Virus genome (UHGV): UHGV-0149432
From: a virus
Strand: one strand, 5' to 3'
Length of the DNA stretch: 24,124 bases
A program made the translations under genes and the position numbers. Below, one piece after another: positions 7,086 through 7,860 of this stretch. How positions within the stretch are numbered: position 1 is the stretch's first letter; each line of letters opens with the position of its first letter. The notes beneath the pieces were generated by a model, which made no database searches, was not told the DNA's origin, and saw only the letters and a program-made list of their open reading frames with translations.

Positions 7086-7765
7086 AAAATTTATCCTATA
7101 TTCGCCAGCAACTGATTGCGGCCACGGCAGATCTGAGCGGAGCGACAAAGGGTCAGTTAATGGCCTGGCTGGAGAACGCGCAGTTCGATACGAATACTTA
7201 CCCCCGCAAGAGGTTGCGTGTACGCGATGAAGTTACGGGAAAACTGATAACGCTGAACAACCCTCCGATCCCCGGAAAACAATCACACGCCAAAGGATCG
7301 CATATCCCGCTGGTGCAGCCGGTTGAATACTCCACTGCTTCATGGCGTCGGGCGCTAATGTCGCTCGACGAGCATCAAAAAGCCTAGTTGCTCTGGAGCT
7401 ACAGTGAAAATACTCGGTTTGAATATCAGGTCGACATAACCCGCTGGGCATGGAATAAGTTTACGGCGCAACTCGCTGGCAAGAAAATCGCCGGAAAAAC
7501 GCTGGAGCGACTCCGGGCGTTAATCTGGTTGGCGGCGCAGGACGTCAAAGCAGAGCTGTGCGGCCGCGAGACGTACGAGTACCAGAAGCTGGCTGAGCTG
7601 GTGGGCGTAGCTAAATCCACCTGGACAGAGACGTACCTGCCTCACTGGTTGGCACTGCGTAATGTCTTTAAGCGGCTCGATAATGATGCGCTTATCTCCG
7701 TAACGCGATCACGTTTACAACAAAAGGCGACAAATTCGAATGTAAGTCTTGCAAAACCGAACTGA
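7082..7765 (+). pseudogene. putative late-gene regulator (Q-like by position) interrupted by an in-frame amber codon
   Basis: Two track ORFs (7082-7387 and 7388-7765) are in the same frame separated only by TAG at 7385-7387; the second segment has no ATG/GTG start or SD; gene sits between the nin region and a pR'/tR'-like unit. Confidence 0.5.
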
Positions 7766-7789
7766 AACGCATATATTTTATGTAAGTCT
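7740..7789 (+). repeat. 10-bp direct repeat ATGTAAGTCT flanking the late promoter
   Basis: Copies at 7740-7749 and 7780-7789, bracketing the -35 and -10 elements. Confidence 0.5.
7749..7777 (+). promoter_or_regulatory. sigma70 promoter, candidate late promoter (pR'-like)
   Basis: TTGCAA (7749-7754), 17-bp spacer, TATATT (7772-7777); overlaps the 3' end of the Q-like gene and lies about 50 bp upstream of a strong terminator. Confidence 0.5.
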
Positions 7790-7830
7790 GATATCGTCGT
7801 TATAGCTTTAATTGTCGACACAAAGAATTA

Positions 7831-7860
7831 AAGCCCGAGGTTAACACCTTGGGCTTTTTT
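7831..7860 (+). terminator. Rho-independent terminator (tR'-like)
   Basis: AAGCCCGAGG-ttaaca-CCTTGGGCTT 10-bp stem (one G.U) followed by TTTTTT. Confidence 0.65.

Follow-up and report, generated by a model that had tools for sequence, protein, structure and literature searches.

The late promoter of phage lambda, pR', is constitutive, carries an early sigma70-dependent pause and gives a short terminated RNA (6S RNA, ended at tR') unless the antiterminator Q brings about read-through (PMC9388147, PMC7547250). The Q proteins fall into three unrelated families, one of which, PF06323, is that of phage 82 (Yin et al., PMC9388147). At the pR' of phage 82, the sigma70-dependent pause occurs at +25/+26 and goes with an extended −10, −10-like element nearer to the consensus than that of lambda; GCC at +15 to +17 supports the pause, and the paused RNA ends with U at +25 (PMC5001585, PMC4914094). 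The Q-binding element (QBE) is located between the −35 and −10 hexamers, within the segment −31 to +30, and this segment suffices for the engagement of 82Q when moved 80 nt downstream (PMC4914094). Here, we describe a locus in the viral genome UHGV-0149432, of which one strand of 24,124 nt was analyzed (hereafter the window; the coordinates of the unit are window positions). We read positions 7749–7860 as the late-gene regulatory cassette of a lambdoid prophage with an antiterminator of the phage 82 (Q82, PF06323) family, and we put the probability of this reading at roughly 0.85. The homology, conservation, Rfam match, gene context, and nonsense codons described below were all observed directly in the analysis. 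The unit is a real and ordinary member of a well-understood kind, that is, a Q82-type late promoter with a pause element and a terminator, and with an IsrJ-family product.

Late promoter unit and its relatives

The original prediction for this stretch placed a promoter, TTGCAA-17 bp-TATATT (7749–7777), across the end of a Q-like gene. A consensus scan recovered this promoter, the gene upstream matched the Q82 family PF06323, and the unit directly follows that gene, whose stop codon (7763–7765) lies inside the promoter spacer. The broader proposal, a pR'/tR'-type architecture that yields a short terminated RNA unless Q acts, is supported by this Q82 context, by homologous units in other genomes, and by a match to the Rfam family isrJ. 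Because the unit stands next to Q and before the lysis genes, it occupies the canonical site for a lambdoid late promoter.

The loci compared were 80 viral contigs (with Q 71–84% identical), Gifsy-1, one Klebsiella phage, and two E. coli prophages. The promoter and leader were found after Q in nearly all the collected loci, namely in the 80 viral contigs and in two of the inspected Klebsiella and E. coli loci; furthermore, of 5426 complete E. coli genomes, 1590 had a match to the unit. An exact 19-mer from the window had no match in species-representative genomes, and a degenerate 17-mer gave mostly chance hits in unrelated phyla, with about ten hits in Enterobacteriaceae that looked real. Among the 49 unique sequences next to Q, the identity was near-invariant from −39 to +14, and the −35 hexamer, the −10 hexamer, and the first 14 transcribed bases were near-invariant in about 50 distinct relatives, which, at the sequence level, marks the site as a sigma70-type promoter. 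The promoter matches the consensus at 9 of 12 positions with a 17-bp spacer, and sites of this grade were at chance level (five in 6 kb, against 6.2 expected in shuffled sequences). The promoter is thus present and conserved in about 50 loci, but its description as “strong” does not hold from its sequence alone. The promoter and terminator together exceed chance because they are conserved in about 50 distinct homologous loci and because the unit matches isrJ in Rfam. The features discussed here are as follows.

7082–7765, plus strand: Q82-family antiterminator gene (PF06323), with an in-frame TAG at 7385–7387
7740–7749, plus strand: upstream copy of ATGTAAGTCT (−44 to −35), in codons of the C-terminal tail of Q (N-V-S-L); variable in relatives
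7749–7754, plus strand: −35 hexamer TTGCAA, from the consensus scan; near-invariant in relatives
7755–7771, plus strand: 17-bp spacer holding the Q stop codon TGA (7763–7765); conserved, with two codon variants; putative Q-binding zone
7772–7777, plus strand: −10 hexamer TATATT, from the consensus scan; near-invariant in relatives
7780–7789, plus strand: downstream copy of ATGTAAGTCT (−4 to +6), across the transcription start; relatives have ATGTAAATCT or GTGTAAATCT
7781–7857, plus strand: Rfam isrJ (RF01393) over model positions 1–75 of 75, at 55.5 bits (gathering score, 37; E-value 7e-8)
7782–7784, plus strand: predicted transcription start, from the IsrJ 5' end and the phage 82 numbering
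7789–7797, plus strand: TGATATCGT, extended −10-like, candidate sigma70-dependent pause element, from the invariance of +6 to +14
7796–7819, plus strand: weak first leader hairpin with a GUCG/CGAC stem, −3.1 kcal/mol
7808–7809, plus strand: predicted site of pausing (+25/+26, U being the base at +25), transferred through the alignment from the register of phage 82 (PMC5001585)
7830–7860, plus strand: intrinsic terminator (tR' equivalent) with a 12-bp stem, a TAAC loop, and a T6 run, from scan and fold
8315–9533, plus strand: first late genes, namely holin (8315–8590), lysozyme (8587–9075, PF00959), and Rz (9072–9533, PF03245)

Two routes lead to nearly the same predicted start site. The published 5' end of IsrJ (LT2 2762030; PMC2330248), transferred with the isrK coordinate offset, falls on G7782, and the phage 82 numbering (GCC at +15 to +17, U at +25; PMC5001585), when applied to the homologous locus of E. 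coli O157:H7 (L083), places +1 at A7784, which is 7 nt past the −10 hexamer and 2 nt downstream of the IsrJ-derived start. With +1 at A7784, the window has TG at 7789–7790, TATCGT at 7792–7797, and U +25 at T7808. In an alignment of 48 unique leaders, T+6, G+7, A+8, T+9, A+10, and T+11, as well as T+14, were invariant, with the core TGATATnnT or TGnTATnnT. The initial transcribed region therefore appears to contain a −10-like pause element, TGATATCGT, which the original prediction overlooked, as it did the in-frame TAG in Q. Homology to more distant Q modules ends just past this element, at 7794–7797, as joint inheritance of Q with its DNA site and pause signal would predict; beyond the element, the leaders split into several unrelated sequence families.

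The O157:H7 homologue provides the link to phage 82. It reads TTGCAA-17-TATATT-tcatgc-AAATCTGATATTTTGCCGATTTTGT, and with +1 at 7 nt past the −10 hexamer, it has TG at +6/+7, TATTTT at +9 to +14, GCC at +15 to +17, and U at +25. Because this locus fits every published feature of the phage 82 pR', we took it to be of the 82 type. The window resembles the phage 82 system in its PF06323 Q, in the position of the Q stop codon in or near the promoter, and in the terminated leader before the lysis genes (PMC5001585, PMC4914094, PMC7547250), and it shares with the O157 homologue the TTGCAA-17-TATATT promoter, the TG-extended −10-like element at +6 to +14, and U at +25. In contrast, the window Q is only about 62% identical to the O157 Q, its element reads TATCGT rather than TATTTT and is followed by CGT rather than GCC at +15 to +17, its Q gene carries a nonsense codon, and the sequences of its first hairpin and terminator are unrelated to those of the 82-type unit. 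The differences from lambda are greater: the lambda Q belongs to an unrelated family (PF03589), the lambda pause is at +16/+17 with an element at about +1 to +6 and no TG extension, and the lambda leader is about 194 nt long (from the template coordinates of PMC4914094), whereas that of the window is about 77 nt.

For this unit, the start of transcription, its pausing, the loading of Q, and read-through are taken by analogy from phage 82, and on that model the unit would work in four steps. The host sigma70 RNA polymerase would initiate from TTGCAA-17-TATATT at about 7782–7784. Sigma70 would then re-bind the extended −10-like TGATATCGT (+6 to +14), and the complex would pause near +25. Without Q, transcription would terminate at the hairpin and T-run (7830–7860), releasing an IsrJ-family RNA of about 77 nt. 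A working Q, bound within about −31 to −1, would instead modify the paused polymerase, which would then read through to the holin, lysozyme, Rz, terminase, and head genes. From the position of the QBE in phage 82 (PMC4914094), we infer that the spacer (7755–7771) would be the Q-binding zone.

Several points weigh against this reading. The promoter, at 9 of 12 positions, is not significant by itself. The window has CGT at +15 to +17, not the GCC that supports the pause in phage 82. The Q-binding zone assigned to the spacer is putative. The link to phage 82 depends on how well the O157 locus fits three published features, and not on the phage 82 sequence. The promoter activity in this genome is predicted. 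A constitutive late promoter would not be expected to need HilA, on which IsrJ in Salmonella reportedly depends (PMC2330248). Finally, Q is truncated, and the antitermination half of the switch is probably not operating in this host.

The genes around the unit are those of a lambdoid phage. Genes for NinG, YlcG, and DUF1367 lie upstream of Q; downstream of the unit, on the same strand, the lysis genes for holin, lysozyme, and Rz are followed by the morphogenesis genes for terminase, portal, and head proteins, which are about 86% related to those of temperate Enterobacter and Klebsiella phages. The holin was identified by a match to phrog_1350 (profile positions 1–52 of 97). In related prophages, the Rfam small RNA (sRNA) families STnc100 and isrI and tRNA genes occur between the late terminator and the lysis genes (L002, 2240–2435; L083, 2832–3004; L081, 3111–3302; L001, 3103–3200; L013, 2444–2540); none of these was found at this place in the window.

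Direct repeats around the promoter

The promoter is bracketed by two copies of ATGTAAGTCT, which match exactly (10/10) at a spacing of 40 bp. The original prediction gave these repeats at their correct positions and proposed them as Q-binding or pause elements. There are precedents for such a role: Q21 binds a direct repeat at its Q-dependent promoter (PMC9388147; bioRxiv 10.1101/651190), and a dimer of 82Q is believed to occupy its site (PMC4914094). However, the Q21 element consists of adjacent 8-bp subsites in tandem that are bound by two interacting protomers of another, unrelated Q family, PF06530 (PMC9388147), whereas the copies in the window are spaced by 40 bp, stand on either side of the entire promoter, and show no conservation as a pair. 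They thus do not form a QBE of the Q21 type.

The conservation of the two copies also differs from that of the promoter. Conservation across the region is lowest over the 5' half of the upstream copy (30–50% identity over −47 to −40). The upstream 10-mer was retained in 18 of 49 unique relatives, but in the O157 (82-type) unit an unrelated sequence stands in its place, and Gifsy-1-type units lack it, even though Gifsy-1 can be induced and plated (PMC4825925). At −44 to −35, it also lies outside the segment −31 to +30 that is sufficient for 82Q (PMC4914094). Of the downstream copy, no more than the final base falls in the invariant element, and G7786, which perfects the repeat, occurs in one of the 49 unique sequences. 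The 10/10 match is found only in this window. A second exact 10-bp direct repeat, CCGACAAAGA (11017–11026 and 11056–11065, 39-bp spacing), lies inside a large-terminase-like open reading frame (ORF) and served as a yardstick for chance; by our own estimate, about one exact 10-mer repeat within 60 bp is expected per 24 kb, and the ATGTAAGTCT repeat is within this expectation. Because the upstream copy is variable or absent, lies outside the sufficient segment, and forms a repeat at chance level, the repeat is not the signal, and a role for the two copies as Q-binding or pause sites, by analogy with Q21, is very improbable. Most relatives do keep ATGTAAATCT or GTGTAAATCT downstream, and an 8–9/10 resemblance of the copies is kept in about a third of the relatives.

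Leader RNA, terminator, and IsrJ

An intrinsic terminator lies between the promoter and the late genes, with a stem that begins 46 nt beyond the predicted start, in agreement with the original estimate of about 50 nt. The terminator originally drawn at 7831–7860 with a 10-bp stem is there, but the computed stem has 12 bp and spans 7830–7857 (nine pairs without three A-U pairs), with the T-run at 7855–7860 and a hairpin energy of −18.2 kcal/mol. The 86-nt leader folds at −24.4 kcal/mol (z-score −3.5). When hairpins were scored per sequence, 56 of 58 unique relatives had a terminator, formed from no fewer than eight unrelated stem sequences; the stems usually end at +70 to +77, and some compensatory change and covariation are seen in their lower part. 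Scoring per sequence was chosen because unrelated hairpin families share no alignment columns. RNAalifold on a MAFFT alignment of 48 leaders was also tried and was set aside, having recovered only seven terminator pairs.

The weak first hairpin of the window is replaced in other families by stems that are stronger and unrelated (−8 to −10.7 kcal/mol), and there is one clean compensatory change. The first hairpins of the window, L010, L083, L076, and L081 all start at the GC-rich bases +15 to +17; these are the bases that support the phage 82 pause.

Downstream of the terminator, a minus-strand ORF (7872–8132; 86 codons, with an ATG and an AGGAGG ribosome-binding site) is convergent to late transcription and sits in AT-rich DNA (GC 0.37–0.41) between the terminator and the holin gene. 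It had no match in Pfam, in PHROG, or in tblastn against phage genomes, and it is a candidate moron that could use the terminator hairpin in the opposite direction. This arrangement bears on a different explanation of the unit, in which the unit lacks a late promoter of its own, the promoter match has arisen by chance, and the hairpin terminates transcription from both sides, that of the early Q operon and that of the convergent ORF. The minus strand does form the hairpin as well (−17.1 kcal/mol, z −4.4), followed by a U-rich tail, the ORF with its strong ribosome-binding site ends 12 nt from the T-run, and the promoter score is at chance level. However, the promoter, start region, and pause element are near-invariant in about 50 loci, most of which have no minus-strand gene downstream, and an RNA with the corresponding 5' and 3' ends has been mapped in Salmonella (PMC2330248). 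Both roles of the hairpin can coexist. We regard the absence of a late promoter as highly unlikely.

In a scan of the whole window with the curated Rfam thresholds, isrJ was the sole match, and its score exceeded the gathering score over the whole model. The expected terminated RNA would be about 77–79 nt long (from 7782/7784 to about 7860), and the terminated RNA of about 70 nt that had been predicted thus corresponds to a catalogued RNA. IsrJ was detected as a 74-nt RNA in the Gifsy-1 prophage of Salmonella Typhimurium, and its own promoter also drove its expression when placed on a plasmid; only in Salmonella has the RNA been shown as a discrete, Hfq-associated species of about 74 nt (PMC2330248). 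The Gifsy-1 unit has the same promoter as the window, nearly identical first 17 nt, the same two-hairpin layout, and a similar length (74–79 nt), but its terminator stem sequence is different, and it does not adjoin Q, from which it is separated by about 870 nt (isrK, orf45, anrP). The literature describes IsrJ as a virulence-linked sRNA and IsrK as an antitermination-regulated RNA (PMC2330248, PMC4825925, PMC7547250), and our literature search found nothing tying IsrJ to a late promoter.

The Q proteins of Gifsy-1 and the window share 67% identity. In Gifsy-1 (L001), the order is Q, isrK, orf45, anrP, and the isrJ unit, and after the stop codon of anrP, homology to the window resumes exactly at the −35 hexamer, TTGCAA (L001 2501). 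The isrK region matches the Rfam families C4 antisense RNA (1799–1882, 69 bits) and c4-a1b1 (1684–1736, 48 bits), which belong to the antirepressor control of the P1/P7 immI system, and no −10-like element follows the isrK promoter within the first 25 transcribed bases. On these two grounds, isrK was rejected as the pR' leader of this Q clade. The segment isrK-orf45-anrP (L001 1664–2607) has the appearance of a P1/P7 immI-type cassette that entered between Q and an isrJ-type late promoter, and the comparison suggests that PisrJ, and not PisrK, is the phage-82-type pR' of Gifsy-1.

The terminated leader of another pR' has also been characterized. StxS, from the pR' of Shiga-toxin phage, is likewise a terminated late-promoter leader that accumulates in lysogens and is sRNA-capable (PMC7547250). 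It differs from the RNA of the window, for which a role in trans is hypothetical, in that no sequence similarity was seen and in being processed by RNase E from a longer leader.

State of the switch in a decaying prophage

The Q gene of the window is interrupted. Its two parts, 7082–7387 (PF06323 profile positions 1–100, E-value 7e-50) and 7388–7765 (profile positions 102–218, E-value 2e-43), are in the same frame and are separated by the TAG at 7385–7387, where TGG (Trp) stands in every one of the 83 homologous Q genes compared; one G>A substitution accounts for the difference. Q is cut after residue 100 of 227 (the stop being codon 101), so that no intact cognate Q protein is encoded; the lost C-terminal half is predicted to carry a helix-turn-helix (PMC9371919). 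A sequence search of the PDB with Q returned no relative, and we found no 82-family Q with an experimental structure. The holin gene is similarly interrupted by an in-frame TAA at 8471–8473, where the holin of Salmonella phage UPF_BP1 (94% nucleotide identity) has CAA, leaving only 52 of about 90 codons. Together, the nonsense codons in Q and the holin would disarm lysis. With TGG changed to TAG in Q and CAA changed to TAA in the holin, read-through has probably been lost, and because of the Q nonsense codon the unit most likely gives only the short RNA. The Q nonsense codon bears on the function of the switch, and not on the identity of the element.

Both nonsense alleles, together with an identical 7736–7870 segment, recur in independent assemblies. 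The same prophage segment is present in four of them (L206–L209; ENA ERZ28631488 and ERZ28631293, NCBI CP052059.1 and JAOWFZ010000034.1), with 99.98–100% identity in three of the four and 98.6% identity, with many small gaps, in CP052059.1, which belongs to assembly GCA_012955585.1 and carries the prophage around 1,678,761–1,685,021; the unit itself is 100% identical in all four. Two of the assemblies have extra deletions in the late region, one of window positions 8801–15855 and the other of 9186–9242 and 10766–14550. The recurrent alleles and further deletions indicate that the prophage is a cryptic element fixed in a lineage; as judged from these assemblies, it appears to be decaying and fixed in a lineage of Enterobacteriaceae.

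The retention of the unit in this disarmed prophage raises the question of its present function. The unit may now be mainly the gene for a trans-acting, Hfq-binding sRNA (IsrJ) that has been kept by the host after the loss of Q and the holin, with the conserved single-stranded 5' end as its seed. This explanation is compatible with a pR' origin and competes over the present function only. Rfam describes isrJ as Hfq-binding, a Salmonella isrJ mutant showed reduced invasion and effector translocation (PMC2330248), and the pR' leader StxS works as a regulatory sRNA (PMC7547250). The layout of the RNA is also sRNA-like (a single-stranded 5' end, a hairpin, an A-rich linker, and a terminator), and the unit is unchanged in the four assemblies even though Q and the holin are both knocked out and two of them have lost further parts of the late region. 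However, the four assemblies are almost identical throughout, so that the retention reflects recent common ancestry and not selection. Moreover, the conservation of the 5' end is fully accounted for by DNA-level signals, it extends upstream of the start site and always accompanies a Q gene, and no target of the RNA is known. We therefore consider a present role mainly as an sRNA gene doubtful, and retain the reading of the unit as a Q82-type late promoter with a terminated leader.

A wider interpretation would join these observations. The IsrJ-family “virulence sRNAs” would be terminated leaders of phage-82-type late promoters, and their 5' “seed” would act as DNA, signaling both the sigma70 pause and Q loading; PisrJ of Gifsy-1 would be the true Q-responsive pR', displaced by about 870 nt by a P1/P7 immI-like cassette; and the unit of the window may be in the middle of a conversion from a phage switch to a constitutive host sRNA gene. 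We offer this combined account tentatively, at somewhat less than even odds.

The paired nonsense codons in Q and the holin make this locus a tidy example of a prophage that has been disarmed while its late-promoter RNA is still encoded. For annotation, the comparison links the Rfam family IsrJ to the biochemically studied late promoter, pause signal, and terminator of phage 82. Furthermore, about 50 natural variants show which bases of the Q82 module do not change, namely the −35 hexamer, parts of the spacer, the −10 hexamer, and TGnTATnnT at +6 to +14, and these unchanging bases could guide the search for the Q82 binding element.

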